From: a virus
Strand: one strand, 5' to 3'
Length of the DNA stretch: 64,000 nt
Virus record (IMG/VR): IMGVR_UViG_3300032245_000795
Coordinates: 51,084-115,083 of that record
Below the pieces are notes generated by a model. It searched no databases. It was not told the DNA's origin and was given only the letters and a program-made list of their open reading frames with translations. The position numbers were made by a program, and so were the translations under genes. Shown here one piece after another: positions 35,009-51,605 of the stretch. Numbering within the stretch: position 1 is the first letter of the stretch; each line of letters opens with the position of its first letter.

Positions 35009-35010
35009 AT

Positions 35011-36131: not shown

Positions 36132-36147
36132 AAATGAGGAGAACAAA

Positions 36148-37038
36148 ATGAAAAAGTTACTACTATCACTACTATCAATCGCAGTTGCATTTACAGCAAT
36201 AACACCAGCACAAGCACAAGATGAAAGGGTCTTAGCAATTATTGACACAGCAATTAATGCAAAGAACTTTCCATCAATTATCCACGAGGTTTGCTTTACT
36301 ACTGTAAAGTCAAAAGATCCAAAGCAGGATATGTCTTGCCCTAATGGAGAATACTTTATGGAAGGTCCAGGAGCAGCCAGTGCTCCATGGCCAACACCTG
36401 CTACTGATAAGATGTGGCTTAACAACGCAACTTTTCACGGAGATCAAATGGTAAAGTCTGCACTAACAGTTGATCCAAATTTAAAGATTGTATTTATTAG
36501 ATTTAATGATGTTACAAGTCTTGGAAACTCAAGAGGAGACATCAAAGCACTGACTTCAGCAATGGACTGGGTATCAAAAAATGCAGGAAAGTACAGCATC
36601 GATGCTTTATCAATTAGTCAGTCATCAGTAAGTACAGCAAACCTTGCCTTATGCTCAACAAGCACAGTAGCAATTAATGCAGTAGCATCCTTAAATGCAA
36701 ACAACATTCCAGTATTTGCTGCAACAGGAAATGATAAAAGAAAAGATGTTGTAGGATTCCCTTCATGCGTTAACGGTGTGATTGGTGTAGGAGCATTAGG
36801 AAGTGCAACACAACTTGAAGGATTAACAAACACAGGTCCTGGTCTTGATATGGTTGCATTTGGTAAGGTAAGCATCACGAAGTATAATGGTTCGCCAATC
36901 GATACTGCTGGAAGTTCTGTAGCAACTGCAGTATCTGCAGCATCATACGTAAACAAAAATACAAATAAAACTTTTGGAGAATATCTACTATCTCTTTCAA
37001 AGATTTTAATTAACAACGTATCATATATTCGTAACTAA
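36148..37038 (+). CDS. Secreted subtilisin-like (S8) peptidase
   Basis: Signal peptide; AIIDT, FHG, AATGN and AGSSVAT catalytic motifs. Confidence 0.8.
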   Translation: MKKLLLSLLSIAVAFTAITPAQAQDERVLAIIDTAINAKNFPSIIHEVCFTTVKSKDPKQDMSCPNGEYFMEGPGAASAPWPTPATDKMWLNNATFHGDQMVKSALTVDPNLKIVFIRFNDVTSLGNSRGDIKALTSAMDWVSKNAGKYSIDALSISQSSVSTANLALCSTSTVAINAVASLNANNIPVFAATGNDKRKDVVGFPSCVNGVIGVGALGSATQLEGLTNTGPGLDMVAFGKVSITKYNGSPIDTAGSSVATAVSAASYVNKNTNKTFGEYLLSLSKILINNVSYIRN

Positions 37039-37043
37039 ATAAT

Positions 37044-37070
37044 AGTCCTAGGCATGACTTAAAACTGCCC
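37044..37070 (+). ncRNA. H-type pseudoknot motif, copy 1
   Basis: AGTC/GACT and GGCA/TGCC stems with a TAAAAC loop; between the S8 stop and tRNA-Asn. Confidence 0.55.
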
Positions 37071-37073
37071 TAT

Positions 37074-37146
37074 TGCCCTATAACTCAGTTGGTAGAGTGC
37101 CGAACTGTTAATTCGGATGTCCCTGGATCGAGGCCAGGTGGGGCAG
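37074..37146 (+). tRNA. tRNA-Asn(GUU)
   Basis: Cloverleaf; CCGAA-CTGTTAA-TTCGG anticodon arm; T-loop reads ATCGAGG. Confidence 0.9.
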
Positions 37147-37187
37147 CGTGATATAATTGTATTGTCATACCTACAAGGAGGAATCAA

Positions 37188-37832
37188 ATGGCAGCAAAAG
37201 GCAGTGTAGAAGCAATCATTGAGGTTGCAAAAAAGGAAGTGGGCACAATTGAAGGCCCAAAGGATAATGAAACAAAGTACGGTGCATGGATTAAAGTAAA
37301 CTTCCAACCATGGTGTCAGTCATTTGTTTCTTGGTCAGCATTTACTGCAGGGGTAAAATCATTCCCTAAGACTGCATCAACAGTAGCAGCAGCAGATTGG
37401 TTTAAGAAAGCAGAGCGTTGGTCAGATGCTCGTAACGATGACCCACAAGCAGGAGACTGGATTTATTTTGATTTTCCAGAAGATGGTGTGAATCGCATTT
37501 CACATGTTGGTCTTTGTATTAAGAATAATGGAGATGGAACCATTCAAGTTATTGAAGGAAACACTTCAGGAACCGCAAAAGGAGATCAGCGCAACGGAGG
37601 AATGTGCGTTGAGAAAACTCGTGGCTATGTAAAGAATAACAAGAAGAAGTTAGTTAATGCTGTAGTCGGTTGGGGTCGTCCAGTTTATGCTGGTGAAGAA
37701 AACGCTCCACTACTAAATAAGGTCGCAGTATCTGTTAAACCAGCACCTGCTAAACCATCAGCACCAAAAGAAATTAAATCAGTAGCAAAAAAGTCTTCTG
37801 GTGGCGGAGGAAAGGGCTCTGTGGCCCTATAA
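37188..37832 (+). CDS. CHAP-domain amidase/endopeptidase (endolysin)
   Basis: PWCQSFVSW, PQAGD, SHVG, IEGNT. Confidence 0.88.
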   Translation: MAAKGSVEAIIEVAKKEVGTIEGPKDNETKYGAWIKVNFQPWCQSFVSWSAFTAGVKSFPKTASTVAAADWFKKAERWSDARNDDPQAGDWIYFDFPEDGVNRISHVGLCIKNNGDGTIQVIEGNTSGTAKGDQRNGGMCVEKTRGYVKNNKKKLVNAVVGWGRPVYAGEENAPLLNKVAVSVKPAPAKPSAPKEIKSVAKKSSGGGGKGSVAL

Positions 37833-38050
37833 TGGAATCAACTAAAAGAACTTTGCTAAAGACAGCAAGTTGGGAAACTTTTCATCTTCTTGGTGTTGCT
37901 GGTATTATTTCTCTTGTAACATGGAGAATAACTGGAGAAGTAGATTATGAATATGCAAGTCTTGGGGCATTAGGATATATTGCTTGGGAGGCACTTGGAT
38001 ATTTCTTGCATGAAAGAGTTTGGGTTAGGTTTGGAAAGGGTATAAAGTAA
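37832..38050 (+). CDS. DUF2061-like small membrane protein
   Basis: RTLLKTASW...YFLHERVW. Confidence 0.7.
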   Translation: MESTKRTLLKTASWETFHLLGVAGIISLVTWRITGEVDYEYASLGALGYIAWEALGYFLHERVWVRFGKGIK

Positions 38051-38160
38051 TGCGTATTAAAATTATTAAGTTTGTTGTAAAATCTTTAGGCTACGAGTGG
38101 TCTGGAGATGAACTCAAACTGCCAGTATGGTATGTAAAAGAAAAGAAAAAATCTAAATAA

Positions 38161-38346
38161 ATGGCATTATACGAGTACGACTGCATGCCCTGTGGTAAAC
38201 GGTATATAAAAGAAAGATCAATTAAAGACAACGATCCAGGATATAATTGTGAAACTTGCAATCTACCGCTGGTTCGTGTATACTCTAATGTAGGAGCAGT
38301 ATTCAACGGTAGTGGATTCTATTCCACTGATAACAGAAAGAAGTAG
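38161..38346 (+). CDS. FmdB-family zinc ribbon protein
   Basis: YEYDCMPCG...CETC...FNGSGFYSTD. Confidence 0.85.
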   Translation: MALYEYDCMPCGKRYIKERSIKDNDPGYNCETCNLPLVRVYSNVGAVFNGSGFYSTDNRKK

Positions 38347-38350
38347 TATA

Positions 38351-38578
38351 ATGTTTACAATGATTAAAGATGAAGTAAAGCAAGAATGGCAACTATCTCC
38401 AGCAGATAGATGCGACAGATGCAATGCTGAGGCTTTAGTAAAGGTCTCTGGTATTAGCGGAGAACTACTATTTTGTGGTCATCACTACAACGGAATTATG
38501 AATGATAAAGAAGGATACAAAAAGATTATGTCCTTTGCTTTGACAGTACTTGATGAGCGAGAGAAACTAATCAGTTAA
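38351..38578 (+). CDS. Small zinc-binding protein
   Basis: DRCDRCNAEA...LLFCGHH. Confidence 0.65.
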   Translation: MFTMIKDEVKQEWQLSPADRCDRCNAEALVKVSGISGELLFCGHHYNGIMNDKEGYKKIMSFALTVLDEREKLIS

Positions 38579-38584
38579 AATAAT

Positions 38585-39169
38585 ATGCTAATAAATGAGA
38601 AGGAATACTCTCAAATTTTATTTGTTCACATACCAAAGACTGCTGGATCTTCAATCTCAAAGGTACTGAAAGATAATAATTTAGATAACTGGAATAGGGC
38701 ATGGCCAAGACATCATGATCCATATTCATATCTAAAAGATGTAAACAAAATTGATGGCAGTGTTTTTTCTTTTTCTGTTGTAAGAAATCCATACACAAGA
38801 ACATATAGTTGTTATAAGCAGTTCAATAAGGTTAATAAAACAGATATATCTTTTATAAAATATTTAGAAAATATTAAAGAAAACAATATATCTCCTATAA
38901 GTCCACTGCTTCATATACCACAGTCGTTCTATGTTATGGAAAATAATGTTGTTCAAGTTGACAGACTTTATAAGTTTGAAAATCTAAAGGAACTGGAAGA
39001 CGAACTTGGATGGACTCTTGGTTTTTATAACGTAGGAAACTATGTGGTAGAATCATATATGGAAGATTATACAGAGTATGCAGTAGTTATGACTCAGGAC
39101 CTCTATAGTTCTGATTTTATAAACTTTGGATACTCTAAAGATTTTAATGAAACCCTGGAGAAAAAATGA
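38585..39169 (+). CDS. Sulfotransferase family protein
   Basis: FVHIPKTAGSS (5'-PSB loop), VRNPYTRTYS, KFENL, DFINFGY. Confidence 0.88.
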   Translation: MLINEKEYSQILFVHIPKTAGSSISKVLKDNNLDNWNRAWPRHHDPYSYLKDVNKIDGSVFSFSVVRNPYTRTYSCYKQFNKVNKTDISFIKYLENIKENNISPISPLLHIPQSFYVMENNVVQVDRLYKFENLKELEDELGWTLGFYNVGNYVVESYMEDYTEYAVVMTQDLYSSDFINFGYSKDFNETLEKK

Positions 39170-39729
39170 AAAAGATATTAGAAGACTTTAACTTTAAGCA
39201 TCATGTCAATTATGAGGTTGAGTCAATTAAAAATTATATAGATAGTTTTTCTGAAGAATGGTTTCTTAACACATCAAGACAAGATAATCACTATGTTCAT
39301 AAAGATACAAACTCATACTTTGTTTATACTGCAGATCTTAGATGGAAAGAGGGAGATATTTTTTCTACTCAAAAAACATCTAATGACAGCGCCTTGCTTG
39401 AACTTCTTGAGCCAATAATCTCAGACCTTGAAAAGATACATGATGGTGTTAGAGGCATGGTGCTTTTAATTAAGTTGAAGGCAGGTCAAGATATAGCGCC
39501 ACATCACGACTCAGGAGATTACCTAATGCTGTCAAGAAGAAACCATATACCAATAGTTACATCTGATGATGTATTTTTTGGTGTAGGAGATGAAAAGATT
39601 AAAATGAAGACTGGAGAATGTTGGGAAATCAATAACTCAAGAACTCATTTTGTAAACAATGGTAGTAAAATAGACAGGGTACATCTATTGATTGATATTG
39701 TGCCAAACACAGAGATAGGTAAAAAATGA
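39166..39729 (+). CDS. Aspartyl/asparaginyl beta-hydroxylase-like 2OG-Fe(II) oxygenase
   Basis: PHHD...RNHIPI...HFVNN...RVHLLID. Confidence 0.82.
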   Translation: MKKILEDFNFKHHVNYEVESIKNYIDSFSEEWFLNTSRQDNHYVHKDTNSYFVYTADLRWKEGDIFSTQKTSNDSALLELLEPIISDLEKIHDGVRGMVLLIKLKAGQDIAPHHDSGDYLMLSRRNHIPIVTSDDVFFGVGDEKIKMKTGECWEINNSRTHFVNNGSKIDRVHLLIDIVPNTEIGKK

Positions 39730-40487
39730 TTATTCAAATTATAGGTCTTCCAGGTTCAGGAAAGACAGAGTTGGCCAAGGCACTTAAAGAAAGAATTAAT
39801 GCTATTCATCTCAATGCAGATGAGGTTCGCTCAACAGTAAATTCAGACTTAGGATTTGCACCAGAAGATAGGCTTGAACAGGCTCGCCGCATGGGGGAGA
39901 TGGCAAGACTAATTGCTAAGCAAGGTATTGCTCCAGTAATAGTAGACTTTGTATGTCCTACTGATCTAACTCGTGCAGCATTTGGCAAATCAGATATCTT
40001 GGTATTCATGGACACAATTGCTGAAGGTCGCTTTGAAGACACAAACAAAATGTTTGAGCGCCCAACAGAGTTTGATGTGTCTTTTATTAGTCACAACTTA
40101 GATGCAGAAGCAAAAGCATCTCACATAATTCAAAAGTTTAACTTACATGATTGGTCTGCACCTACAACTCTAATGCTGGGCAGATACCAGCCATGGCATG
40201 AAGGCCACCACGCCCTTTATAAGGAGGCAGGAAAGAGAACTGACCAAGTACTTCTTGGAGTCCGCAATACCTATAACACAAGCGAGAAAGATCCACTTAA
40301 GTTTGATCAGGTAAAAGAGTATATTGGCAAAGATGAATTTATGGATGGCGCATTAGTATTAAGACTACCTAACATTACTAACATTGTATATGGCAGAGAT
40401 GTAGGATATAAGATTGAGCAAGTAGACTTAGGTGCAGATATTCATGCTATTTCTGCTACGCAAAAGCGTAAAGATATGGGAATCTAA
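39726..40487 (+). CDS. cysC: Adenylylsulfate kinase fused to HxGH nucleotidyltransferase
   Basis: GLPGSGKT, LNADEVR, DFVCP; C-terminal GRYQPWHEGH and ISATQKR. Confidence 0.8.
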   Translation: MIIQIIGLPGSGKTELAKALKERINAIHLNADEVRSTVNSDLGFAPEDRLEQARRMGEMARLIAKQGIAPVIVDFVCPTDLTRAAFGKSDILVFMDTIAEGRFEDTNKMFERPTEFDVSFISHNLDAEAKASHIIQKFNLHDWSAPTTLMLGRYQPWHEGHHALYKEAGKRTDQVLLGVRNTYNTSEKDPLKFDQVKEYIGKDEFMDGALVLRLPNITNIVYGRDVGYKIEQVDLGADIHAISATQKRKDMGI

Positions 40488-40595
40488 ATGTTAGAAAATG
40501 TTATTGCAATTGTTGTTTCGCTTATGGTCGCTGCTATTACTGTCTACTTTGTTGACAAAAAGTGGGGTGGATCTGATGACAGTAACCAAGGCTAG
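40488..40595 (+). CDS. Small single-TM protein (35 aa, not in ORF track)
   Basis: MLENVIAIVVSLMVAAITVYFVDKKW... Confidence 0.45.
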   Translation: MLENVIAIVVSLMVAAITVYFVDKKWGGSDDSNQG

Positions 40596-40779
40596 ATCTT
40601 TTACTAAGGCATTAAGTTATCGCATATGGGGAACACTATCTTCGTTTGTTGTTGCTTATGTAATTACTGGAGATGCAACACTTTCAGGAGCAATTGCCTT
40701 TTGGGAAACGGTAGTTAAAGTATTTATCTACTACGCACATGAGCGTGGTTGGAACTATATTCAGTGGGGAAGAAAATAA
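40576..40779 (+). CDS. DUF2061 membrane protein
   Basis: RSFTKALSYR...YYAHERGWN.I.WG. Confidence 0.8.
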   Translation: MTVTKARSFTKALSYRIWGTLSSFVVAYVITGDATLSGAIAFWETVVKVFIYYAHERGWNYIQWGRK

Positions 40780-42302
40780 TGAATAAGGACATAGTAGTTG
40801 TTGGTGGTGGAAGTGCTGGATGGCTGACTGCTTTAGCAGCAAAGCACAAGTATCCCAACCTTAATGTCATTGTTATAGAGTCAAAAGATATTGGAATCCT
40901 TGGCGCTGGAGAAGGATCAACCCCATACTTACCTGCATTTTTAGACAGCATAAACATAAGTCTAGAAGATTTAGTTAAAAATTGCGACGCAACTATAAAG
41001 AATGGTATTAAGTTTACTAATTGGAACAATGACAATGATTTTTACTATCATGGTTTTGGTGCTACAGACCTACCACTTGGAACAGAGGCTTTATCATCAA
41101 GATTTTTATCTGTAAGCCCAATGTTAGTATCAAGTCTTGTACTTAATAATGGCATAAGAGAAGTAGACTTTACGGAAAATTTATCAGAAAATAGCAAGGT
41201 TCCTTTTGTTCTTGAAAAAAACAAGGTTGGCAATGTAGTTTCAGACTATAAAAAATTAGCGCAGATATCTATTCATTTTAATGCTACAAAACTTGCAGTA
41301 AGGTTTAAAGAGATAGGCTTAGAAAGAGGTATTCAGGTTTTTGAAAATACAATAACTGAAGTATCCTTGGATGAAGATAATAACGTTAAAAGTCTGCAGT
41401 TGGATAATAATAAAACTATCCTATCTGATTTTGTTTTTGATTGCAGCGGATTCCATAGGCTTATTATAGGCAAAACACTTAATGGCAAGTGGAAAAGTTA
41501 TAAAGATCATCTTCCAGTAGACTCAGCCATTCCATTTTTTCTTGATATGACAGACAAAATTCCATCATACACAGAAGCAATTGCAATGAAGTATGGATGG
41601 ATATGGAAAATTCCACTACAGACAAGATTTGGATGCGGTTATGTCTATGATTCTTCTCTTATATCAGAAGCAGAAGCGATCAAAGAGTTAGAAGATTTCT
41701 TAGGTTTTGTTCCTCATTATCCAAGAAAAGATAAGGGCGGATTTAGTTTCAGCCCAGGAGCATTTGAAAGTCCATGGCAAAACAATGTTGTTGCAGTGGG
41801 ACTAGCAGCAAACTTTGTAGAGCCATTAGAGGCAACATCTCTTTGGGTTACAATGGTAGAACTGACTGAGATATTTAATAGTCCAGACTTCTTGCTAAAT
41901 AATTCTCAAGAAATTCGAGATGAGTTTAATAAGATTGTTATTAGTATGAACGATGACATTCTTAGTTTTATTTATTTCCATTACATGTCCTTAAGAAAAG
42001 ATACTGAGTTTTGGAAGAAGTTTTCTTATGAAAATGCTCCAGATAATTTAAAAAAGAAAATAAATATTTGGCAAAAAAGACTTCCTGGAAAGCAAGATAA
42101 TAGCAATCATTGGAATTCAAAGAGTTGGTTTTTGGTTGGGTCTGCACAAGAAACAATAAATAAGTCTATTGCAAAGGGTTACACAGATCTTTCAGAAGAG
42201 TATAGAAAAGCAATTGATACGTACGATTACTATAAAACATACAGAGAGTACAAGGTATCAGAATGTGTAGATCATAGACAATTTTTGGAGGGACTAAAAT
42301 GA
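40779..42302 (+). CDS. Tryptophan halogenase (PrnA/RebH)-family flavoprotein
   Basis: GGGSAG, GAGEGS, ATIKNGI (catalytic Lys position), DCSGF, WIWKIP, EPLEATS. Confidence 0.88.
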   Translation: MNKDIVVVGGGSAGWLTALAAKHKYPNLNVIVIESKDIGILGAGEGSTPYLPAFLDSINISLEDLVKNCDATIKNGIKFTNWNNDNDFYYHGFGATDLPLGTEALSSRFLSVSPMLVSSLVLNNGIREVDFTENLSENSKVPFVLEKNKVGNVVSDYKKLAQISIHFNATKLAVRFKEIGLERGIQVFENTITEVSLDEDNNVKSLQLDNNKTILSDFVFDCSGFHRLIIGKTLNGKWKSYKDHLPVDSAIPFFLDMTDKIPSYTEAIAMKYGWIWKIPLQTRFGCGYVYDSSLISEAEAIKELEDFLGFVPHYPRKDKGGFSFSPGAFESPWQNNVVAVGLAANFVEPLEATSLWVTMVELTEIFNSPDFLLNNSQEIRDEFNKIVISMNDDILSFIYFHYMSLRKDTEFWKKFSYENAPDNLKKKINIWQKRLPGKQDNSNHWNSKSWFLVGSAQETINKSIAKGYTDLSEEYRKAIDTYDYYKTYREYKVSECVDHRQFLEGLK

Positions 42303-42583
42303 AATTTAGAACAGAGTGGATTAATGCTCTAAAGACAATGAGGCATAAGTCTTATTGGGACCTACCAAATACTGTAGAGTTCTTTGCTTTTATGACCAAG
42401 GCAGCAATTATTGTCCCAGGTCTTATTTTTGGTGTACAGTTTTGGTGGCTATACATCTTTGCACTAATAACCAGTTTATCTTTAATCTGGTCGTCAACAG
42501 TTAAAACATTACCAACAATTATTTGGTTTAATATAATCTGGTCAATTCTTGCAGCAACTGCTATAATTAAGTATTGGGTCTAA
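42299..42583 (+). CDS. Small multi-TM membrane protein
   Basis: Three hydrophobic segments. Confidence 0.6.
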   Translation: MKFRTEWINALKTMRHKSYWDLPNTVEFFAFMTKAAIIVPGLIFGVQFWWLYIFALITSLSLIWSSTVKTLPTIIWFNIIWSILAATAIIKYWV

Positions 42584-42593
42584 GGGGGCACAA

Positions 42594-43001
42594 ATGTTTG
42601 AATATTATGTAAAAAAAGTAACAAAGGTAGTTGATGGAGATACCATTGATGTTGATATTGATTTAGGGTTTGACATTTCTTTTAGTTCAAGAGTCAGACT
42701 TGCTGGTATTGATACACCTGAGTCTCGTACAGCAGACAAGGCTGAAAAGGCTTTAGGACTAGAAGCAAAGGCTTATTTGAAGGCTGCTATTGACAGTGCT
42801 AAGTCTGTAGTAATTAAGACAGAGAAGATGGACTCTTCAGAAAAATATGGTCGTATTCTTGGTTGGGTTTATCTTGATGGAGATACCGTTTCTATTAATG
42901 ATAAGATGATCAATGATGGACATGCCTGGGGATACATGGGAGAAACAAAGGTCAAAGATTTTGACGCTTTGAAGAAGGCCAGAGCAAAGTCAGGTAAATA
43001 G
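42594..43001 (+). CDS. Staphylococcal nuclease (thermonuclease)-like protein
   Basis: VVDGDT, VRLAGIDTPE, KYGRIL. Confidence 0.9.
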   Translation: MFEYYVKKVTKVVDGDTIDVDIDLGFDISFSSRVRLAGIDTPESRTADKAEKALGLEAKAYLKAAIDSAKSVVIKTEKMDSSEKYGRILGWVYLDGDTVSINDKMINDGHAWGYMGETKVKDFDALKKARAKSGK

Positions 43002-43002
43002 A

Positions 43003-43227
43003 ATGGGGCTTAAAGAAGAAGCCATGCTTGAGCACCTGATGCTTCAGGGTGCTGTTGAATTTCAAGGTATAGATGAAGCAACTGGCGAGATGATGTATAC
43101 CATCACTGATAAGATGAAAGAAGTTAGTCCAGATATATATGAAGAACTAAAAGATCAGTATGAGCACCATATGTTTCAACTAATTGAGCAAGGTCCTACA
43201 AGAATGACATGGAGAATTCGTGGATGA
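43003..43227 (+). CDS. Hypothetical protein (paralog of next gene)
   Basis: L.L.GA.E..GID..TGE..Y..T.K..EVSP is shared with 43224. Confidence 0.6.
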   Translation: MGLKEEAMLEHLMLQGAVEFQGIDEATGEMMYTITDKMKEVSPDIYEELKDQYEHHMFQLIEQGPTRMTWRIRG

Positions 43228-43562
43228 ACTTCAAAGATGAGGATGACGCAATAGATCAACTAATTCTTTCTGGTGCCCTTGAGGTTGCTGGAATAGACAT
43301 GAATACAGGAGAGCCTATTTATAATTTTACAGAAAAATTAATAGAGGTAAGTCCAGAGTTACATAAAGAAGTTTCTTTGTATTTTTCTCGTGAAACCATG
43401 TCTTTATGGAGTCATGGGTTTTTGGACATGGATGTGACTGAAAAAAATCCTATAGTAACACTAACACCAAAGGCCTTAGATGATGCTGAAGTATCTAAAC
43501 TAAGCAAAGAGTCTCAGGCTACGCTGAGCGAAATAATAAGAGTTATTCTTTCAGATAAGTAG
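43224..43562 (+). CDS. Hypothetical protein (paralog of previous gene)
   Basis: Same motif; ATGA overlap. Confidence 0.6.
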   Translation: MNFKDEDDAIDQLILSGALEVAGIDMNTGEPIYNFTEKLIEVSPELHKEVSLYFSRETMSLWSHGFLDMDVTEKNPIVTLTPKALDDAEVSKLSKESQATLSEIIRVILSDK

Positions 43563-43582
43563 TATAATTGGTTTGGAGAAAT

Positions 43583-44005
43583 ATGGAATACTTTTTGGGG
43601 TCTGCTATAACAATGATTGCCATGTTCATTACGACAAGGCTAATATTGCCACGCAAACTAAATGCTAAAGTAAATAATTTTAGATACAGCCAAAGCCATA
43701 TTCATACATTAATTATGCCACTCATTCCAGATATCAAAAGTTATAAGAAAAAAATGATTACTCAGTCCAGCAAACATGATGAAAGAGTAAATATAAAAGT
43801 TGTAATATTTGACAATAAAGCATACTTTGTTAAAGATGGTAGTTTTTATTCCGCTGATATGGACGGAAACTTTATTGATAGACAGACGGCAACTGTAGTT
43901 GACACGATAGGTATGGATAAGGTACAATTAGATAAGATGCTGTTTATAATGGATCAACTTAGGGATGGGAAGAAAAATGATAGTGGGGATTCAAGGAACC
44001 AGTAG
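43583..44005 (+). CDS. Hypothetical protein with N-terminal TM
   Basis: GGAG RBS; hydrophobic N-terminus. Confidence 0.55.
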   Translation: MEYFLGSAITMIAMFITTRLILPRKLNAKVNNFRYSQSHIHTLIMPLIPDIKSYKKKMITQSSKHDERVNIKVVIFDNKAYFVKDGSFYSADMDGNFIDRQTATVVDTIGMDKVQLDKMLFIMDQLRDGKKNDSGDSRNQ

Positions 44006-44327
44006 TTTTGATGACTACCATGTCTTCCTTAGAGCAATGGCAGTTACTATGTCTTCTTTAAAGGAAGATGATCCATACCTTTATATATATTCTGCAGGAC
44101 CTGCAAATATTAATCTTATGGCTATGGAGTTTACAAACTTGTCTGAGCGTGGCTTAAAGGCTCGTGGAAAAAGTATTAAGTATAAGCCTGTTCCTCCTTC
44201 ATGGATAGCAGAAAACATTTCAGATGTAAACTACTTTGCTTTTTTAAGTAAAGAAAAAGAGCAGGTCTCAAAACTTGTCGATGAAGCAAAAAACAACAAT
44301 GTCGAATACGGCATTTTCAGATACTAA
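43977..44327 (+). CDS. Hypothetical, SLOG/YspA-like fold possible
   Basis: IVGIQGTSSFDDY N-terminus. Confidence 0.45.
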   Translation: MIVGIQGTSSFDDYHVFLRAMAVTMSSLKEDDPYLYIYSAGPANINLMAMEFTNLSERGLKARGKSIKYKPVPPSWIAENISDVNYFAFLSKEKEQVSKLVDEAKNNNVEYGIFRY

Positions 44328-44340
44328 CAAAGGAATAAAA

Positions 44341-44550
44341 ATGCAAATTAAATCATTAGAACAGATGGAAAAGATTGTTAATTCAAACAAGTCTTTGGTA
44401 TGGGATGGATGGACAGTGGTAAATACTTATCCCTCTGAGAAGGGTAGAACAGCACCACAAGGTGCATTCGTAGATGGTAAGTGGCACCTACAGCGTCGTT
44501 TTGTACCTTCTAAGAATGGATGGGACATACCAGACAAGTTTGTAGGTTAG
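44341..44550 (+). CDS. Hypothetical protein
   Basis: AAGGA RBS; WDGW motif. Confidence 0.55.
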   Translation: MQIKSLEQMEKIVNSNKSLVWDGWTVVNTYPSEKGRTAPQGAFVDGKWHLQRRFVPSKNGWDIPDKFVG

Positions 44551-44551
44551 T

Positions 44552-44836
44552 ATGCCTAAACATGAATGGAAAGATGATGCTTTGTGTTTGGACTATGATA
44601 CAAATTTATTCTTTGAAAAGTATGAAGATGATGAATTATTAAGGCCAGCAATAGATAAACTATGTTCTATGTGTCCAGTATCAAAGATGTGTTTTGCTGT
44701 TGGTGTTTCTCAAAAAGAATGGGGAGTTTGGGGTGGTGTTTATCTTGAAGCGGGTCAACTATCTAAAGAATTTTCTAAGCATAAGTCTAAATCAGACTGG
44801 GCAAATACATGGCAAAGACTGACAACGGAGCAATAA
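44552..44836 (+). CDS. whiB: WhiB-family Fe-S transcription factor
   Basis: W...ALC...FF...CSMCPV...C...GVWGG. Confidence 0.9.
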   Translation: MPKHEWKDDALCLDYDTNLFFEKYEDDELLRPAIDKLCSMCPVSKMCFAVGVSQKEWGVWGGVYLEAGQLSKEFSKHKSKSDWANTWQRLTTEQ

Positions 44837-44837
44837 A

Positions 44838-45074
44838 GTGTATACAGATTCAATGAGAAAAGCGTTTCATTCACTTAGAGGGCCAAAAGGTTTTTATCTT
44901 CAAGTAATTGATCATGACAATTTTTTAACAATAAAAGCAAGTGAAAAACAGTTTATGAGTTTGTCTGGAGAAGACAGAAAACAGGCGGTAGAGTACATGA
45001 TCCGTGTAAAAAAAGCATTAGAAGATAATGGTGCCATTGTTTTGTTAGTAAGAGAAGGAGGAAAAGAACAATGA
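44838..45074 (+). CDS. Hypothetical protein
   Basis: GTG start with GGAG RBS. Confidence 0.55.
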   Translation: MYTDSMRKAFHSLRGPKGFYLQVIDHDNFLTIKASEKQFMSLSGEDRKQAVEYMIRVKKALEDNGAIVLLVREGGKEQ

Positions 45075-45496
45075 TCGAATTTACTGCATTTACAGTTTTT
45101 ATATTTTTATTTTTTATTTTAATAATTAATAATATTAGGGTTAGCCTTAAACTTTCTTCTGCATATCAAAAATTAATTCAAGCCCACATAGATAACACTA
45201 TCTTGGCAGAAAAACTTTTTGAAACATCTGCACAAATAATAGTAAAAAAAGAAACAGATTCAGACGCTTTCTTAAAATTTGTTTCAGATTCTCGTGACTG
45301 GGCATATCAGTACATTGATGAGGTTCAAGAAGGTATAAACAAGTTTATTACTGATATTGAAGCAGAAATTGCATACTTTGATGAATATGGAGAGGTTGGT
45401 TCTGCATACCCTCATTATCACTCTATGAAGAAAATTTCAAAGGCATACAAAGAACTAAAGAAATTGCTACCAGAAGACTATGATAAAATAGAGTAA
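45071..45496 (+). CDS. Hypothetical membrane-anchored protein
   Basis: N-terminal TM; FVSDSRDWAY. Confidence 0.55.
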   Translation: MIEFTAFTVFIFLFFILIINNIRVSLKLSSAYQKLIQAHIDNTILAEKLFETSAQIIVKKETDSDAFLKFVSDSRDWAYQYIDEVQEGINKFITDIEAEIAYFDEYGEVGSAYPHYHSMKKISKAYKELKKLLPEDYDKIE

Positions 45497-45642
45497 TGAT
45501 CGTACTTAAATCAACTAAAAATCTTAACATGTTTATATGTGAAGAAGAGTTATGTCAGGATGAAAGTACAAGAGTTTGGGCAAGTTCTGAAAGTAGAATC
45601 GTAGAACTTTGTGACCTACATTACGGTAAGGCAAAGGAATGA
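45496..45642 (+). CDS. Small Cys/His protein (48 aa, not in ORF track)
   Basis: CEEELC...LCDLHY; coupled on both sides. Confidence 0.5.
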   Translation: MIVLKSTKNLNMFICEEELCQDESTRVWASSESRIVELCDLHYGKAKE

Positions 45643-46496
45643 AATTTTATTATTTTGGTGGTGTGTTAGGTTCAAAAACTTCTGTCAAATCTCCATCTAA
45701 TCTTAATGATCATGGGTTTCATGGGGTAATGTTTACACATGATATACCGCAAGGTGACATATTTATACAAACAGCCTTGGACATAAAGCCAAATGAAAAA
45801 ATTAAATACTTAGTAGCCATCCGTCCGTATACAATATCACCGCAATATCTTTATATGCTTAATGATTCACTAAACAAAATACAAAAAGATAGAGTACAAC
45901 TAAATATTATTTCAGGTTATACTAAAAATCATGAGAACAGTGTTAAAGGTATTGTTGGAAATGTAAATGATCAATCAGACAAGGTTGAAAAAAGAAAGTA
46001 CCTTGTTGAGTTTCTTGAATCATTAAATGAAATGAATTCAAACAAAGATCTAAATTATCCATTGGACTTCTTTGTAACAACAACAAACCCAAGAGTACTT
46101 GATGCTGTTAACAAATATAACAATAAGATAATTTTGCCATATAGTTTGTATAAGAACGACATTTGGTTTAAAAAATTTAATCGTCCATTAGAAGTTAAAA
46201 GTAAAGACATTATGTTGGCAATAACGCCAGTCATTAGAGACACAGAGGAAGAACTTGACGAGTTAAAAAACTACGCACTAAGACCTATATGGCAAGAAGG
46301 AGAAGTCTCCAGAGTAGTAAACGATGCTGCATACTTTACACCAAATAGTTTCCATGAATTTGTAAAAGATCTAAAGAAAAATAATATTCACTACATGTTG
46401 ATCAATGCTGTTCCGCAAGGGGAAAATGATATAATTATTCCTTTTATTAAAAATTATGTAGAATCAACAAAATATAAGGATATGGTACGAGCATGA
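45639..46496 (+). CDS. Luciferase-like (LLM/SsuD-like) monooxygenase, copy 1
   Basis: KYLVAIRPYTISPQY...RVQLNIISG. Confidence 0.65.
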   Translation: MKFYYFGGVLGSKTSVKSPSNLNDHGFHGVMFTHDIPQGDIFIQTALDIKPNEKIKYLVAIRPYTISPQYLYMLNDSLNKIQKDRVQLNIISGYTKNHENSVKGIVGNVNDQSDKVEKRKYLVEFLESLNEMNSNKDLNYPLDFFVTTTNPRVLDAVNKYNNKIILPYSLYKNDIWFKKFNRPLEVKSKDIMLAITPVIRDTEEELDELKNYALRPIWQEGEVSRVVNDAAYFTPNSFHEFVKDLKKNNIHYMLINAVPQGENDIIIPFIKNYVESTKYKDMVRA

Positions 46497-47371
46497 AGTT
46501 TTATTATTTTGGTGGTACATTCAATGAAAACGATACACTTGAAGACACATCTACCCTAAATAATCATCACTTTGATGGCGTTATGTTTACATATGATGCA
46601 ACACAAGGAGACATGTTTGTTAGGATTGCCAAAGATATTAAGTTAAACGAAAAAATTAAATACCTTGTTGCGATTAGACCCTATACAATATCTCCACAAT
46701 ACTTATATGCTATAAATCAATCAATAAGTGAAATTCAAAAAGATAGACTACAAATAAATATAATTGCAGGATATATTAAAGATCATGAAAGCAATGTTGG
46801 TGGAATTGTAGGTGATGTAAATGATTCATCATCTTCAGTTGAAAGGTCAAACTACACAATTAAATTTATTGAAAGTTTATATGAGATATCAAAAAATAAA
46901 GATAAAAAAGATCAATTGGATGTATACATATCAACAACGAACAACTATGTTTTTGATACAGTAAAAAAATATAAAAATAAAATTATACTTCCATATAGCA
47001 TTTACAAGCGTGGATTTTGGTCTGACTGGATTAAAGATCCTTCACTAAAGATTGAGTTTGAAAGAGGGGACATTGAAATAATGTTAGCAATGACTCCAGT
47101 TATTAGAGAAACTAAAGAAGAACTCGAATCCTTAGCACATCATGCTATGAAGCCAGTATGGAAAAAGGGAGACGTTACAAAAGTTGTAGAAGATGTAGAA
47201 TACTTTACACATGAAAGTTTTCATGAGTTTATTCAAATGCTTGAAGATGATAACATTAATCACTTATTAATAAATGCTGTACCAAGATCAGAGTCTACAA
47301 ATATTATTTCTTTTATAAAGAAATATGTAGAGTCAATAACAGATTTTGCTGGCCAACAGGCTGGTAAATAA
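46493..47371 (+). CDS. Luciferase-like (LLM/SsuD-like) monooxygenase, copy 2
   Basis: Tandem paralog sharing MKFYYFGG and KYLVAIRPYTISPQY. Confidence 0.65.
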   Translation: MKFYYFGGTFNENDTLEDTSTLNNHHFDGVMFTYDATQGDMFVRIAKDIKLNEKIKYLVAIRPYTISPQYLYAINQSISEIQKDRLQINIIAGYIKDHESNVGGIVGDVNDSSSSVERSNYTIKFIESLYEISKNKDKKDQLDVYISTTNNYVFDTVKKYKNKIILPYSIYKRGFWSDWIKDPSLKIEFERGDIEIMLAMTPVIRETKEELESLAHHAMKPVWKKGDVTKVVEDVEYFTHESFHEFIQMLEDDNINHLLINAVPRSESTNIISFIKKYVESITDFAGQQAGK

Positions 47372-47396
47372 ATAAAATATCCTATAGGAGGAAAAA

Positions 47397-47726
47397 ATGA
47401 ATAAAGCAATGATCGAATCATACGTAAGAAACCTTATTGGTCAGGTATTTGGAGCAATGGTAATTGTTTCACAAACATCTGGACTTGATATTCCATTTGG
47501 TTTTGGAACAAGTGAATGGCTACTTGTGGCAAATACACTATGGTCATCTCTTGTGCCAGTAGCGCTAAGATATATCAATAAGAAGGATCCAGCATTTGGA
47601 CTTGTCGCTGCAGCAGTAGCGCAAGAAGTTTCAAATAAACTGACTTCAGCACCAAAGAAGACCGCAAAGAAGGCTCCTGCAAAGAAGTCATCTGGTGGCG
47701 GAAGAACAAACAATCAAGTAAAATAA
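47397..47726 (+). CDS. Membrane protein, holin-like, with Lys/Ala tail
   Basis: Two TM segments, PVALRYINKKDPAFG, basic tail. Confidence 0.55.
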   Translation: MNKAMIESYVRNLIGQVFGAMVIVSQTSGLDIPFGFGTSEWLLVANTLWSSLVPVALRYINKKDPAFGLVAAAVAQEVSNKLTSAPKKTAKKAPAKKSSGGGRTNNQVK

Positions 47727-47743
47727 AGTAGTATAATTTATAC

Positions 47744-47858
47744 TATTCCGCTATAAGACTTTAAAAGGTTTTGCAACGGATGCTCGATGAAATGAGAGTT
47801 AGCAGGCTGATTGCCGTGGCTGATAGACCTGAGCAGTAGTCTATAAACTGCTCATTTC
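47744..47858 (+). ncRNA. Putative structured small RNA ending in pseudoknot copy 2
   Basis: TATAAT 47732-47737; hairpin 47747-47780; GTTAGC/GCTGAT stem; pseudoknot ATAGAC/GTCTAT plus TGAGCAG/CTGCTCA. Confidence 0.65.
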
Positions 47859-47927
47859 CTATGCTATAATATTTATACCTGCCCAAATGGGGGGTAAATT
47901 AACTTATTCGCTTGAAAGGGGAATAAA

Positions 47928-48332
47928 ATGGTAAAAACAGCACTGGATCTTTTTAATGATCCATTTTTCAATACCTTCTCAAATTTTCAGAAGGTAACAA
48001 CAACAACAAACTATCCACCTTATAACCAGATCAAACTAAATGATAAAGAATATATTCTTTCATTTGCATTGGCTGGATTTTCTAAGGATGATGTCTCAGT
48101 ATCGCTAGACAATCGCAAACTTACAATTAAGGGCGAGAAGCAGGATCCTGAGTTGCCAGAGGGTGCGGAGTATCTACATAAGGGCATTGCTGCTCGTAAG
48201 TTTACTGATATCTTCACCCTTCCTGAGTTTGTTGAGGTGGTTGGGGCTGAATTTAAAGACGGTATCTTAGATATTAGACTTGAAAAGCAGATCCCAGAAG
48301 ACAAACTACCAAAAACAATCGCAATCAAGTAG
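47928..48332 (+). CDS. Small heat-shock protein Hsp20 (IbpA-like)
   Basis: NYPPYN, ALAGF, YLHKGIAARKF, AEFKDGILDI. Confidence 0.93.
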   Translation: MVKTALDLFNDPFFNTFSNFQKVTTTTNYPPYNQIKLNDKEYILSFALAGFSKDDVSVSLDNRKLTIKGEKQDPELPEGAEYLHKGIAARKFTDIFTLPEFVEVVGAEFKDGILDIRLEKQIPEDKLPKTIAIK

Positions 48333-48344
48333 TACAATATAAAT

Positions 48345-48429
48345 GTCCCCACACAGGACCTTAGTGATGGATTAGTTACCCATTGGATAGAGACCGTGGC
48401 GCAAGTCAGGTGAATTGCCTGTGTGGGGC
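48345..48429 (+). ncRNA. Putative structured small RNA (three-way junction)
   Basis: TACAAT 48333-48338; 11-bp closing stem CCCCACACAGG/CCTGTGTGGGG; internal hairpins, one with a GCAA tetraloop. Confidence 0.6.
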
Positions 48430-48456
48430 TTAATACTTTGCGGTATAATAATAACA

Positions 48457-48723
48457 ATGACTGACAAAGAGTTAGACCATTATAACAAGCAAGAGTTTAA
48501 AAAAATGCTTGCTAAGATAAAAGAAGATTCTGGCTGCGTAGACTGCGGTGTTAGTAACCATATAATTTTAGATTTTGATCATTTAAGGGATAAAAAATAT
48601 AACATATCAAGGATGATACATGATGGTTTTTCTTGGAAGGCTATTAAAAAAGAGATTGAAAAGTGCGAGGTAGTGTGTGCAAACTGTCATCGAATAAGGA
48701 CTCATAATAGGCTTGCTGGCTAA
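48457..48723 (+). CDS. Small HNH endonuclease
   Basis: CVDCG...DFDH...VCANCHRIRT. Confidence 0.85.
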   Translation: MTDKELDHYNKQEFKKMLAKIKEDSGCVDCGVSNHIILDFDHLRDKKYNISRMIHDGFSWKAIKKEIEKCEVVCANCHRIRTHNRLAG

Positions 48724-48743
48724 TACTATGCTATAATGATAAG

Positions 48744-49193
48744 ATGGAAGAATTGATTAATCTACTGAAGGTGCTCCTTGCAGACAATATTACTCTTAAG
48801 TTAAAGGCTCATGGTTACCACTGGAATGTAGAAGGAGATGACTTCCCACAATTTCACGATTTTTTTGGTGACATTTATGCAGACTATGAGTCAGCAACAG
48901 ATACTTATGCTGAATGGATTCGTAAGTTAGATTCTTATGCACCATTTAAATTATCAAGGTTTATTCAACTGAATGAAGTTGGTGAGCCAGATGTAACATC
49001 AGATCCTATGATGATGTCTAAAGATTTGCTAATTTCAAATGATATGGTTCTTGCTAAGTTAGTAGATGCCTGTGATATGGCAACAAAAAATAGACAACAT
49101 GCTCTTGCAAACTTTTTTGCAGAAAGAATGGATCAGCATCAAAGATGGCATTGGATGCTATCTGCATCAACCAAACCAATGGGAGAAGAATAA
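48744..49193 (+). CDS. dps: Dps/ferritin-like protein
   Basis: HGYHWNVEG..F...H...D..AE...H....WML. Confidence 0.9.
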   Translation: MEELINLLKVLLADNITLKLKAHGYHWNVEGDDFPQFHDFFGDIYADYESATDTYAEWIRKLDSYAPFKLSRFIQLNEVGEPDVTSDPMMMSKDLLISNDMVLAKLVDACDMATKNRQHALANFFAERMDQHQRWHWMLSASTKPMGEE

Positions 49194-50227
49194 TGACAAG
49201 TTTATACAAAAGTGAAGCATCAATAGCAACATCGCCAAACCCAGAAAACCCTTCTGACTCCATTAATCCAACAGTTGGAATGGCTAAGCCTGCAGTAATG
49301 TCAGCAGGAAAGAAAAAGAAAAAGAAGTATCGTGCTGCAAAGTCAATCGAATCAACAACTATTTTAAAAGATATGGTTGCTGAAGGTGACTTTGTTATTG
49401 TTTCGTGTGAAGATGAAACACATGTTGGTATTGTTCAGTATGTCATGACTGAAGGAATGTTTGGAATTGCCACGTCTGATTATTCTATTGAAGCATCAGC
49501 AGAAAACCCAGCGGTTCTTGTTCGTACCCTTGAATTTGAAGAAGATGAGGGTATTTGGGAAGAATCAGAATATTTAGTAGGAGCAGAAGCAAAGATGGTT
49601 ACTAAGATTGAGCCACTTGCTTTAGAAGTCGAGACTGTAGCAAATGTAGATGCTTCAGAAGTTTCTATGGCCATGTATGACTCATCAATAGGTAAGGCTG
49701 CTCCATGTTGGGATGGATATGTACAGCGTGGAATGAAGCCAGGAGATAATGGTAAGCCAGTTCCTAATTGTGTTCCTGCTGCAAAAGCAGATGATCTATT
49801 TGAAGATGATGATACAGTTGAATACGACACAGACTCAGTATCAAAGGCTGAAGGATACTCACCACCAGCAGGAGCAAGATCTGCTGCTCGTAGAGCAATT
49901 AAGTTTAAGGAAGATGGAAAGGCTAACGGCGCAGGAACATCAGTTGGCTGGACTCGTGCAGGGCAGTTAGCAAGAGGAGAGTCACTATCTCTTAGTACTG
50001 TTAAGAGAATGTACTCATACTTCTCACGTCATGAAGTTGATAAGAAGGGTAAGGACTGGGGAAATACAGAAAACCCTTCTAATGGATACATCATGTGGCT
50101 TGCATGGGGTGGAGATGCAGGTTTCTCATGGTCAAGAGGAATTGTTAATCGTGAAAAAGATAAAGCATTATTTAGTGATTTTGGTAAAGACTATACAAAT
50201 GTAAAAACAGAAAGACACTCCCTATAA
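49193..50227 (+). CDS. Modular protein, probably virion head-associated
   Basis: CWDGY...VPNCVP module and GTSVGWTRA...RMYSYFSRH...WGGDAG module, both seen in phage head-related proteins. Confidence 0.5.
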   Translation: MTSLYKSEASIATSPNPENPSDSINPTVGMAKPAVMSAGKKKKKKYRAAKSIESTTILKDMVAEGDFVIVSCEDETHVGIVQYVMTEGMFGIATSDYSIEASAENPAVLVRTLEFEEDEGIWEESEYLVGAEAKMVTKIEPLALEVETVANVDASEVSMAMYDSSIGKAAPCWDGYVQRGMKPGDNGKPVPNCVPAAKADDLFEDDDTVEYDTDSVSKAEGYSPPAGARSAARRAIKFKEDGKANGAGTSVGWTRAGQLARGESLSLSTVKRMYSYFSRHEVDKKGKDWGNTENPSNGYIMWLAWGGDAGFSWSRGIVNREKDKALFSDFGKDYTNVKTERHSL

Positions 50228-50355
50228 TGCCAAAGAAAAAATCATTGGCATTTAACCCTATTCAGATCAAAAACGGTTGGATTGTTAGGCTGTACAAAGA
50301 TGGTCGGATTAAATCTAAGATTGCACCATACGAACCAAAACATACTAAGAAATAG
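50227..50355 (+). CDS. Small basic protein (42 aa, not in ORF track)
   Basis: MPKKKSLAFNPIQIKNGWIVRLYKDGRIK...; TAATG coupling. Confidence 0.55.
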   Translation: MPKKKSLAFNPIQIKNGWIVRLYKDGRIKSKIAPYEPKHTKK

Positions 50356-50357
50356 AA

Positions 50358-51095
50358 ATGCTAAAGTACGATAAAGTATACTTTTTGCACATTCCAAAAA
50401 CAGGTGGAAGGTTTTTTACAAAGTATATCCTTGAGCCAATAGAAAATACATTAAAAGAAAATGGAATAGATGTAGTTAAGTTACCACCAAATGTTTCAAA
50501 GCATGGTGGATGGCATAAAGAGATAGACGACAAAACCTATATTATTTCTGTTTTTAGAGATCCCGTAGAGTTTTTTGTAAGTGTTATTGCTCATATGTTT
50601 GCAGATCAAGAAAGAATGTTAGATGAAAATAAAGACCACATCATAAAAGATAAAACAAAAATTTTAGATATACCAGTAGAGGCTGTTCGTAATAAGATAG
50701 TTCAGTTAGATTATTTAAAAAATTTTCAATCTCAAAACTTTATCTTAAGCCCTACACAAAATCATATTATTCAGGAATCTATAAAAGAGCATAACATTGG
50801 AAATGCTATTGATAAAGAATTAGTATATGAAAGAATAAAGAGAGTTAATCTAATGATAAGGCACAAAGATTTAAAAAATATGAATTACTCTGTATTGATC
50901 AACAAGATATCAAAAGATCTCGGAATAAATATAAACATAAAATTTCCAGAAGCAGATAGAGAACACTATAAAAATAATTCTTCAGAAGTTCTTTTTGATA
51001 AACTCAGTAAAGATGATATAAATTTTATATATGAAAACTTTTTATTTGATAAAGAAATATATCAGAATGATTCAATATTTTGGACAGAAAAATAG
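50358..51095 (+). CDS. Second sulfotransferase family protein
   Basis: FLHIPKTGG, FRDPVE, DKEIY. Confidence 0.8.
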   Translation: MLKYDKVYFLHIPKTGGRFFTKYILEPIENTLKENGIDVVKLPPNVSKHGGWHKEIDDKTYIISVFRDPVEFFVSVIAHMFADQERMLDENKDHIIKDKTKILDIPVEAVRNKIVQLDYLKNFQSQNFILSPTQNHIIQESIKEHNIGNAIDKELVYERIKRVNLMIRHKDLKNMNYSVLINKISKDLGININIKFPEADREHYKNNSSEVLFDKLSKDDINFIYENFLFDKEIYQNDSIFWTEK

Positions 51096-51199
51096 GATAG
51101 TTTTAGGTCATATCCAGGACTTTTACATTAAGGACAACATAGTGTTGCAACACGCTATGTTAATGTTTCCCGACATAAACATAACAACTATATTGTCAC
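51092..51199 (-). ncRNA. Putative structured small RNA ending in pseudoknot copy 3
   Basis: Minus-strand TGATATAAT at 51206-51214; nested 11-bp and 9-bp stems; GTCCTGGATATGACCTAAAACTATCC at the 3' end; no ORF. Confidence 0.65.
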
Positions 51200-51216
51200 A
51201 CTTTAATTATATCATG

Positions 51217-51288
51217 TACCCCTGGCAGGAATCGAACCTGCGACAAACGGATTAGAAGTCCGCTACTCTTCCGCTGAGTTACAGAGGT
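51217..51288 (-). tRNA. tRNA-Arg(UCU)
   Basis: GCGGA-CTTCTAA-TCCGT anticodon arm; GGTTCGATTCC. Confidence 0.92.
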
Positions 51289-51289
51289 A

Positions 51290-51366
51290 TGGTACATCTG
51301 GAAGGACTTGAACCTTCGGCTCTCTGCATATAAGGCAGGTACTCTAACCAACTGAGTTACAGATGT
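51290..51366 (-). tRNA. tRNA-Ile(UAU), CCA encoded
   Basis: CCTGC-CTTATAT-GCAGA anticodon arm; GGTTCAAGTCC. Confidence 0.88.
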
Positions 51367-51367
51367 G

Positions 51368-51442
51368 TACACCAGGTAGGACTTGAACCTACGAATAGCC
51401 GAATTATGAGTTCGGTGCCTTAACCAACTTGGCTACTGGTGC
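51368..51442 (-). tRNA. tRNA with CAU anticodon (elongator Met or Ile2)
   Basis: CCGAA-CTCATAA-TTCGG; lacks the initiator GGG/CCC stem. Confidence 0.88.
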
Positions 51443-51605
51443 TAGTCCTTATGATACTAAGATACCAAGAAGCATTCCAATTATAAAGCACAGTATGCCA
51501 ACAGTCCAATGATAGTAAGTCTTCATGTGCTCTTTAATAATGTAGCGCTTTAAATCTTTTGATATTTTGTTAAACTCTTTATTATCTAACATAAACTATC
51601 CAATC

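Follow-up and report, generated by a model that had tools for sequence, protein, structure and literature searches.

What is a compact RNA fold doing when it recurs between the genes of a bacteriophage, its stems changing in sequence while its linkers stay the same? The question is raised by a 64,000-nt stretch of DNA (the window), which comprises bases 51084-115083 of one 115,083-bp virus record, IMG/VR IMGVR_UViG_3300032245_000795, and has a G+C content of 36.6%. A preliminary description had placed three H-type pseudoknots in the window, here called E1, E2, and E3, and reading of the sequence agrees with their positions, layout, and stems, with one correction: of the 5 nt assigned to stem 2 (S2) of E1, the inner 4 bp pair, but the outer A and C do not. 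The knots belong to a very widespread family that is in neither Rfam nor the searchable literature and whose reality can hardly be doubted. In the reading favored here, which is given slightly less than an even chance of being right, the knot is a 3'-end module equivalent to a hairpin, acting as a terminator when it carries a U-tract and otherwise as a block to exonucleases. The three elements follow, with their scores under a covariance model that was built from family members and searched against the 115-kb genome.

37044..37069, plus strand: pseudoknot E1; stem 1 (S1) 37044-47/37056-59, S2 37051-54/37066-69; 49.4 bits
37048-50, 37055, and 37060-65, plus strand: loops L1, L2, and L3 (A-rich) of E1
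47823..47853, plus strand: pseudoknot E2, of a long-stem subtype; S1 47823-28/47839-44, S2 47831-36/47848-53, both of 6 bp; 41.1 bits
51120..51095, minus strand: pseudoknot E3; S1 51120-18/51109-07 (3 bp), S2 51115-11/51099-95 (5 bp); 38.7 bits

The family consensus reads S1 (3-6 bp, ending in C), CU, GRGYA, W, S1' (starting with G), N0-3 AAAC, and URCYC, and the size of the knot is ~26-31 nt. The loop of stem 1, 8 nt long, opens with CU and includes the 5' half of stem 2; stem 1 leads into an A-rich linker with AAAC at its 3' end, to which the 3' strand of stem 2 is joined. L2 is a single variable base (U in 64 copies, A in 52, C in 11), and the distance from the stem-1 G to S2' is 10 nt in 112 of 135 copies. 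The 3' strand of stem 2 is usually extended by an A able to pair with the loop U; this A is present at position +1 in 71% of copies and its pair with the loop U in 74%, and G is nearly missing from +1 to +5. By analogy with luteovirus-type pseudoknots, the A-rich linker would occupy the minor groove of stem 1, and the groove of stem 2 would take up the loop C; such contacts would yield a small, mechanically tough fold.

Relatives came from 160 IMG/VR loci found through neighboring proteins, plus 12 more, and provided dozens of copies. In an alignment of 61 sequences, CCU, AAAC-U, and the A and G flanking L2 are all invariant, as had been proposed for the two linkers from three copies, and the pair that closes stem 1 is C-G in 61/61. 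Double changes are found in seven of the nine pairs, so that both stems covary; the covariation score is 0.486 versus 0.223 for shuffled alignments, and none of 500 shuffles reaches it. This set had been selected for pairing, and two unbiased tests were made in addition. When matches were selected by the invariant letters only, both stems were fully paired in 36 of 87, versus none in reversed or shuffled controls. Furthermore, a pattern fixing only the letters of the loop, stem 2, and the linker matched at least 120 IMG/VR contigs, and among the matches listed, 117 of 120 unique cores have at least three contiguous stem-1 pairs. A gapless alignment of 96 distinct viral sequences, picked from the matches listed without regard to stem 1, has the C-G closing pair in 96/96; the two stem-1 pairs beside it are Watson-Crick in 96/96, with four pair types each, the next pair holds in 75/96, and the one further out is at the level of chance. 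This pattern proves a stem 1 of 3-4 bp. Stem 2 likewise covaries among relatives, where GAGCA, GGGUA, AGGCA, UGGCA, AAGCA, and GGAUA each occur with their complement. Thus, the earlier claim that the stems differ while their pairing is kept has been borne out well beyond the three copies on which it was made.

The family is also larger than the three members first recognized, with six full copies in this genome and hundreds of members overall. The covariance model recovers E1, E2, and E3 and three more full copies (38.7-49.4 bits for the six), so that half of the full copies lie inside the window. The other three are all on the minus strand of the early region and were confirmed by sequence reading; their positions are those of the record.

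Genome 621-661, minus strand: full knot
Genome 1155-1195, minus strand: full knot
Genome 4173-4213, minus strand: full knot

There are, in addition, a copy cut by the contig start, where the contig is not closed, and a degenerate copy at genome 538-551. The full knot at 621-661 and the degenerate one stand in tandem, ~75 nt apart, on the minus strand at genome 500-700 (locus L177), with a GC hairpin between them and a TTGACA box directly 3'. Otherwise, the copies are single and dispersed, and tandem repeat arrays were not seen. At the copy at 1155-1195, the longest-ORF (open reading frame) call of the next gene starts at an ATG within the knot; the gene more likely starts at a later ATG, which has a ribosome-binding site, and knots of this kind will tend to be hidden in overlong ORFs by automatic annotation. 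The fold is distinguished from background by its letters. A regular expression of the shared letters has four matches in the genome versus 0.13 in shuffles; the fourth, at window 18313-18354 (minus strand), scores only 14.5 bits with the covariance model, cannot pair stem 2, and is probably a chance match within a gene. In contrast, a loose structural descriptor alone gives 13 genome matches versus 9.3 in shuffles and does not discriminate, so that only sequence-anchored descriptors separate the knot from its background.

The knot is found in phages and mobile elements of many phyla and in transcripts of all kinds (mRNAs, small RNAs, and tRNA leaders). The pattern without stem-1 letters also matches genome contigs whose assignments span many bacterial phyla and Methanobrevibacter. 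However, 42 of the 122 matches in that scan have fewer than three stem-1 pairs, and about one-third are chance matches; taxon lists drawn from it need filtering. Two carriers are cultured, Latilactobacillus phage TMW 1.2272 P1, where the knot lies between a small gene and the scaffold gene, and cyanophage S-RIM4.

Is the knot a member of a family that is already known? Searches of Rfam 15, at gathering cut-offs for the whole window and at E<=10 for four small loci, returned only tRNAs and noise. A blastn comparison of the three intergenic regions with 50,697 phage records gave nothing except tRNA-Asn, and no description was found in the literature on the motif letters, on coremin elements in bacteriophages, or on pseudoknot-type terminators. 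These results bear on two proposals. A ligand-sensing riboswitch of the preQ1-I type (RF00522) has some appeal: the preQ1-I aptamer resembles the knot in topology and size and has an A-rich 3' tail followed by C-U, and tRNA-Asn, which one copy precedes, is a carrier of queuosine. However, the RF00522 model, run on this genome at E<=10, has none of the six copies among its matches. In addition, L2 of preQ1-I is 4-6 nt long and includes the C that pairs with the ligand, whereas L2 of the knot is one variable base and stem 2 of the knot is longer. Nor is there a link to queuosine genes; downstream genes are of every kind, with tRNAs, lysin, or Hsp20 after the knot, and many copies have no downstream gene. 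A riboswitch is thus very improbable. The second proposal, from the preliminary description, was a decoy for toxins of type III toxin-antitoxin systems. Type III antitoxin RNAs are pseudoknots, and a phage mimic of one is known. Antitoxins like ToxI, however, are tandem repeats of ~35 nt beside a toxN-type gene, and the knots are neither arrayed in tandem nor matched in Rfam at E<=10; they occur as single copies within mRNAs, small RNAs, and tRNA leaders across many phyla (a toxN gene was not searched for). Of all the explanations considered, this one is given the least credence.

Where the knot lies relative to genes is more informative. Of the 320 unique contexts, 177 have the knot in the same direction as both neighbors, 33 between convergent genes, 20 between divergent genes, and 6 antisense to both neighbors; many of the 20 "divergent" knots are in reality preceded by small-RNA genes. 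In another 45 contexts the knot was called inside an ORF, and some of these calls, at least, look spurious. At least 8 nt always separate the stop codon from the invariant C, and 8 nt is also the mode (42/133); stem 1 begins 4-8 nt past the stop codon. In contrast, the next start codon lies at widely varying distances from the knot, with a shoulder at 20-30 nt. Of the 33 knots between convergent genes, 14 have their end no more than 10 nt from the stop codon of the opposing gene, as E3 has.

A sharp limit of 8 nt on how closely the top of stem 1 approaches the stop codon is one reason to consider that the knot may act on the ribosome. In this model, the stop codon is in the A site of a ribosome and the knot lies at the entrance for the mRNA, where it would either ensure clean termination or, by preventing read-through, sliding, or re-initiation, uncouple neighboring cistrons. 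The geometry, with stem 1 starting 4-8 nt after the stop, is that of frameshift pseudoknots, and coremin, a viral knot compared below, blocks ribosomes (PMC10520033). The likeness to the -1 frameshift knots of luteoviruses (the beet western yellows virus [BWYV] class) extends to a 26-30-nt H-type fold, a C at the start of loop 1, a single nucleotide at the junction, an A-rich loop crossing stem 1, and a position 4-8 nt from the A-site codon. However, the phage knot is preceded by a stop codon rather than a slippery heptamer, and there is no overlapping -1 frame; neither a heptamer nor an extended frame is present upstream of E1 or the copy at 4173-4213, and a tRNA, promoter, or convergent gene comes after the knot. 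Furthermore, many copies are in untranslated RNAs, and no conserved ORF precedes E2, E3, or other small-RNA copies. The same spacing would also be expected if the knot merely had to stay folded outside the ribosome footprint. A role at the terminating ribosome is therefore considered improbable.

The favored reading, the 3'-end module, accounts for the same spacing in another way: the knot would be the phage counterpart of a 3' stem-loop, serving the RNA upstream, and would be placed as near the stop codon as the terminating ribosome permits. Like intrinsic terminators and stabilizers of the repetitive extragenic palindrome (REP) type, the knots lie behind genes, in convergent gaps, and where small RNAs end, with a preceding A-rich stretch and, in a sizeable fraction, a U-rich tract; the difference is that a pseudoknot takes the place of the GC-rich hairpin. 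At least six T residues in the 8 nt right after the knot are found in 16.6% of copies versus 0.7% of control windows (~20-fold), and at least five in 36.5% versus 3-7%. Tracts are present in 5% of copies before tRNAs and are most frequent, at 27%, where the next gene is 41-300 nt away. Within this genome, the tract is present at E3 and the copy at 4173-4213; it is absent at E1, where a tRNA comes next, and at the copy at 1155-1195, where the ribosome-binding site of the next gene comes next. The copy at 621-661 also lacks a tract, and the degenerate knot and a promoter come after it. With a tract, as at E3 and 4173-4213, transcription would end as at an intrinsic terminator. Without one, RNA polymerase would read through, and after a cut downstream, the knot would block 3'-to-5' exonucleases. 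Ordinary intrinsic terminators consisting of a hairpin plus U residues are not enriched in window 35000-54999 (13 versus 10.9 expected), where several strong promoters of the sigma-70 and extended -10 types were also observed.

How the version without a tract might work is best seen at E1.

36148..37038, plus strand: 296-aa ORF with a weak PHROG match to a family labeled "protease"; TAA at 37036-37038
37074..37147, plus strand: tRNA-Asn(GUU), starting 4 nt past E1

As first described, E1 lies between a stop codon and tRNA-Asn, 5 nt 3' of the TAA and 4 nt 5' of the tRNA. Since this gap is too short for a promoter, transcription of tRNA-Asn must run through the knot. RNase P would then cut at the 5' end of the tRNA, leaving the knot with a 4-nt tail. 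An analogy, and only that, is provided by MALAT1 and MEN-beta, whose 3' end, a triple helix, arises when RNase P cleaves a tRNA-like structure downstream. As would be the case at E1, a compact A-rich fold of the triplex type lies immediately 5' of an RNase P site, so that the cut leaves a protected 3' end, but the fold and the domain of life are different, and E1 is followed by a true tRNA. It was also observed that the 8 nt made up of the 3' strand of E1 stem 2 and the spacer (37066-73) recur unchanged, in tandem, as the 5'-terminal 8 nt of tRNA-Asn (37074-81), so that the 5' strand of stem 2 is able to pair with either; a similar resemblance is kept in relatives. The tandem copy may be a trace of the element's origin or may allow an alternative fold.

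A tRNA is found 3' of the knot in 40 contexts, at a gap of 4-5 nt in 26 of them, and this frequent adjacency is also in keeping with another hypothesis, that the knot itself is a recognition or processing signal. It would mimic a tRNA acceptor arm or be bound by RNase P, a different RNase, or an RNA-binding protein, marking cut sites in polycistronic RNA. Stems 2 and 1 could stack coaxially to give ~10 bp, and stem 2 begins with G-C, with U before it and A after it in 71% of copies. In the tRNA-like acceptor-arm pseudoknot of turnip yellow mosaic virus (TYMV), the 3' strand is followed by a discriminator base and CCA, and RNase P cleaves the pseudoknotted tRNA-like structure of TYMV. ACCA, as at a tRNA 3' end, directly follows the knot in 14 of 135 distinct copies (IMG/VR loci L183-L301), and ACC in 22 of 135; by the authors' estimate, base composition would give ACCA in ~0.4%. 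However, this is only ~10% of copies and none of the six in this genome. In addition, the A after stem 2 is explained equally simply by pairing with the loop U (74%), and a cut within the knot would destroy it. A processing signal is accordingly thought improbable, about as much so as the action on ribosomes considered above.

In small RNAs, too, the knot lies at the 3' end. E2 and E3 each close a noncoding stretch of ~100-110 nt that stands behind its own -10 box, in agreement with the preliminary description, and these RNAs are conserved and structured in relatives. The features around E2 are as follows.

47732..47737, plus strand: -10 box of the E2 small RNA, inside the conserved TAGTATAAT
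47744..47822, plus strand: body of the "type A" small RNA, with a 5' stem around a hairpin and then two covarying hairpins
47862..47870, plus strand: extended -10 promoter TGnTATAAT of the Hsp20 gene, beginning 9 nt past E2
47928..48332, plus strand: Hsp20 gene (PHROG E 3.6e-37)

The E2 RNA, ~110 nt long, starts after the conserved TAGTATAAT box and is kept in 33 distinct relatives; its conserved 5' stem has a hairpin inside it, and compensatory changes are seen in two other hairpins. The module is upstream of hsp20 in this phage and downstream of hsp20 in other relatives. At least three types of ~100-nt phage small RNA (window 47744-47822 and loci L005-L084) were observed to have the TAGTATAAT promoter box in common and the knot at the end. 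Two of the types have a common 5' stem, AUUCCG...CGGA, with a different interior, and one relative (L030) is a hybrid of two types; an Rfam scan of two of the types gave no match. The features around E3 are as follows.

50358..51095, plus strand: convergent ORF facing E3; the final base of its TAG stop (51095) is the final base of E3 on the opposite strand
51121..51199, minus strand: body of the E3 small RNA, containing a long hairpin, conserved in relatives L169 and L170
51206..51214, minus strand: extended -10 promoter TGaTATAAT of the E3 RNA, adjoining tRNA-Arg, by direct sequence reading; inferred start at ~51199
51216..51442, minus strand: tRNA cluster Arg(UCU)-Ile(UAU)-Met(CAU), on the same strand and upstream of the E3 small RNA

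The minus-strand U-rich tract lies immediately 3' of E3. A coding reading of the 19-codon ORFs in the E2 and E3 RNAs was rejected; they are not conserved, and in relatives, a stop is reached after three codons. In the 3'-end model, the knot would set and shield the 3' ends of these two independently promoted RNAs.

Taken together, the strand bias, the anchoring to stop codons, the copies between convergent genes, the small-RNA ends followed by a fresh promoter, and the tRNAs that begin 4-5 nt behind many knots speak for a 3'-end role, as do the enrichment of U-tracts, their rarity where read-through is needed, and the lack of a surplus of ordinary terminators. The earlier suggestion of a reusable module at RNA 3' ends is thus supported by placement, and the more specific idea of 3'-end formation, termination, or an exonuclease block is favored by the context statistics, although it is not proven. 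Several points weigh on the other side. All of the functional steps are inferred from placement alone, and the 320 contexts were defined with crude gene calls (only ORFs of at least 60 aa, plus ARAGORN) and, in many cases, come from related contigs and are hence not independent. For a terminator, stem 2 is short and lacks a high GC content, and U-tracts accompany only 17-36% of the knots. A Shine-Dalgarno site lies ~10 nt 3' of many copies, and in some relatives, a -10 box lies immediately upstream of the knot, which would then be the 5' end of the endolysin mRNA. Finally, the nearest characterized sequence relatives, the coremin elements, block enzymes that arrive from the 5' side (PMC6546385, PMC10520033).

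Coremin requires a closer look. This element of beny-, cucumo-, and other RNA viruses, GUC-CGAA-GAC-GUUAAAC-UAC, needs a C-G pair closing its loop, a YGAD loop, AAA, then C-U-A, and a second hairpin; a Watson-Crick variant, xrRNA-WCC (xrRNA, exoribonuclease-resistant RNA), has a stem 2 of 3 bp, and the authors of that work noted a likeness to the BWYV pseudoknot (PMC6546385, PMC10520033, PMC10321173). The coremin fold is a mechanical block. Both elements have a short stem 1 (often GUC/GAC in coremin; a core of 3-4 bp in the knot) with an obligatory C-G closing pair, a loop whose first base is C and which ends in A-D (A-W in the knot), and a spacer with a variable 5' part, AAA, and then C-U-R at equal distance; in both, pairing between loop and spacer makes a small pseudoknot. 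However, the coremin loop is YGAD or YGNNAD, with G as its second base, whereas that of the knot is an 8-nt CU-GRGYA-W in which the second base is an invariant U. Stem 2 consists of two or three mostly non-canonical pairs in coremin and of five or six canonical pairs in the knot. Furthermore, the second hairpin that coremin requires for resistance to Xrn1 is not a conserved feature of the knot: a hairpin starts within 4 nt downstream in 32% of copies versus 35% of control windows. Coremin is also an element of RNA viruses, whereas the knot occurs in DNA phages, mostly right past stop codons. On sequence and form, coremin is thus treated as the closest known relative in form rather than as the knot's family, and the likeness could reflect either homology or convergence.

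The likeness is the basis of the main rival to the 3'-end module, a barrier on the 5' side. In this model, the knot would halt 5'-to-3' exonucleases (RNase J), ribosomes arriving from upstream, or both, and so protect or insulate the RNA downstream, such as a tRNA precursor or the next cistron. Besides the letters that the knot has in common with coremin (the closing pair, the loop ends, and the AAA-C-U-R block in the same register), the model can draw on the ability of coremin to stall scanning ribosomes and Xrn1, the latter one nt ahead of hairpin 1, and to stimulate -1 frameshifting (PMC10520033, PMC10321173), on the many copies that precede a tRNA by 4-5 nt or a Shine-Dalgarno site by ~10 nt, and on a stop-to-knot spacing equal to the spacer length of frameshift signals. 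However, the copies in convergent gaps, and those that end small RNAs before a fresh promoter, have nothing downstream to protect, and the anchoring is to the upstream stop codon rather than the downstream start. The departure from the YGAD loop and the lack of enrichment for a second hairpin also tell against it. In addition, RNase J was not found in two of five genomes that carry true copies (both are metagenome-assembled genomes of unknown completeness), and so a 5'-side block cannot depend on RNase J everywhere. The barrier is therefore judged unlikely on balance, although it is the strongest of the competitors. It should be noted that blocking from the 5' side and from the 3' side are not exclusive, and a general "bulkhead" role is possible.

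A broader hypothesis would join these systems. One fold might be a universal, host-independent barrier at RNA ends, used by DNA phages of many phyla and, in the reduced form of coremin, by RNA viruses of eukaryotes; the phage knot would then be the first natural intrinsic terminator or 3' cap built as a pseudoknot, with the route through RNase P that resembles MALAT1 as one of its forms. This proposal is put forward as a doubtful one, if somewhat less so than the 5'-side barrier. If the 3'-end reading is true, a 27-nt RNA device that escapes annotation pipelines and Rfam punctuates phage genomes and would explain how compact phage genomes without ordinary terminators define or stabilize the ends of mRNAs, small RNAs, and tRNA precursors. 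There would also be a possible link between a nuclease-blocking element of plant viruses and bacteriophages, and possibly a very small, host-independent part for stabilizing or insulating transcripts. Since TMW 1.2272 P1 and S-RIM4 are cultured carriers, function is directly testable.

Two other observations concern genes of this phage group. Positional orthology upstream of the endolysin gene failed, because the neighborhood is mosaic. In many relatives, a gene ending in Cys-x-x-Cys-His...Arg, which from its motif may encode an HNH-type endonuclease, is inserted directly upstream of endolysin (L100, L101, L103, L121, L132, L133, L136, L137, L145, L146, L149, L151, and L162). In addition, the window carries a gene resembling tryptophan halogenases at 40749-42302 (PHROG E 1.6e-103).

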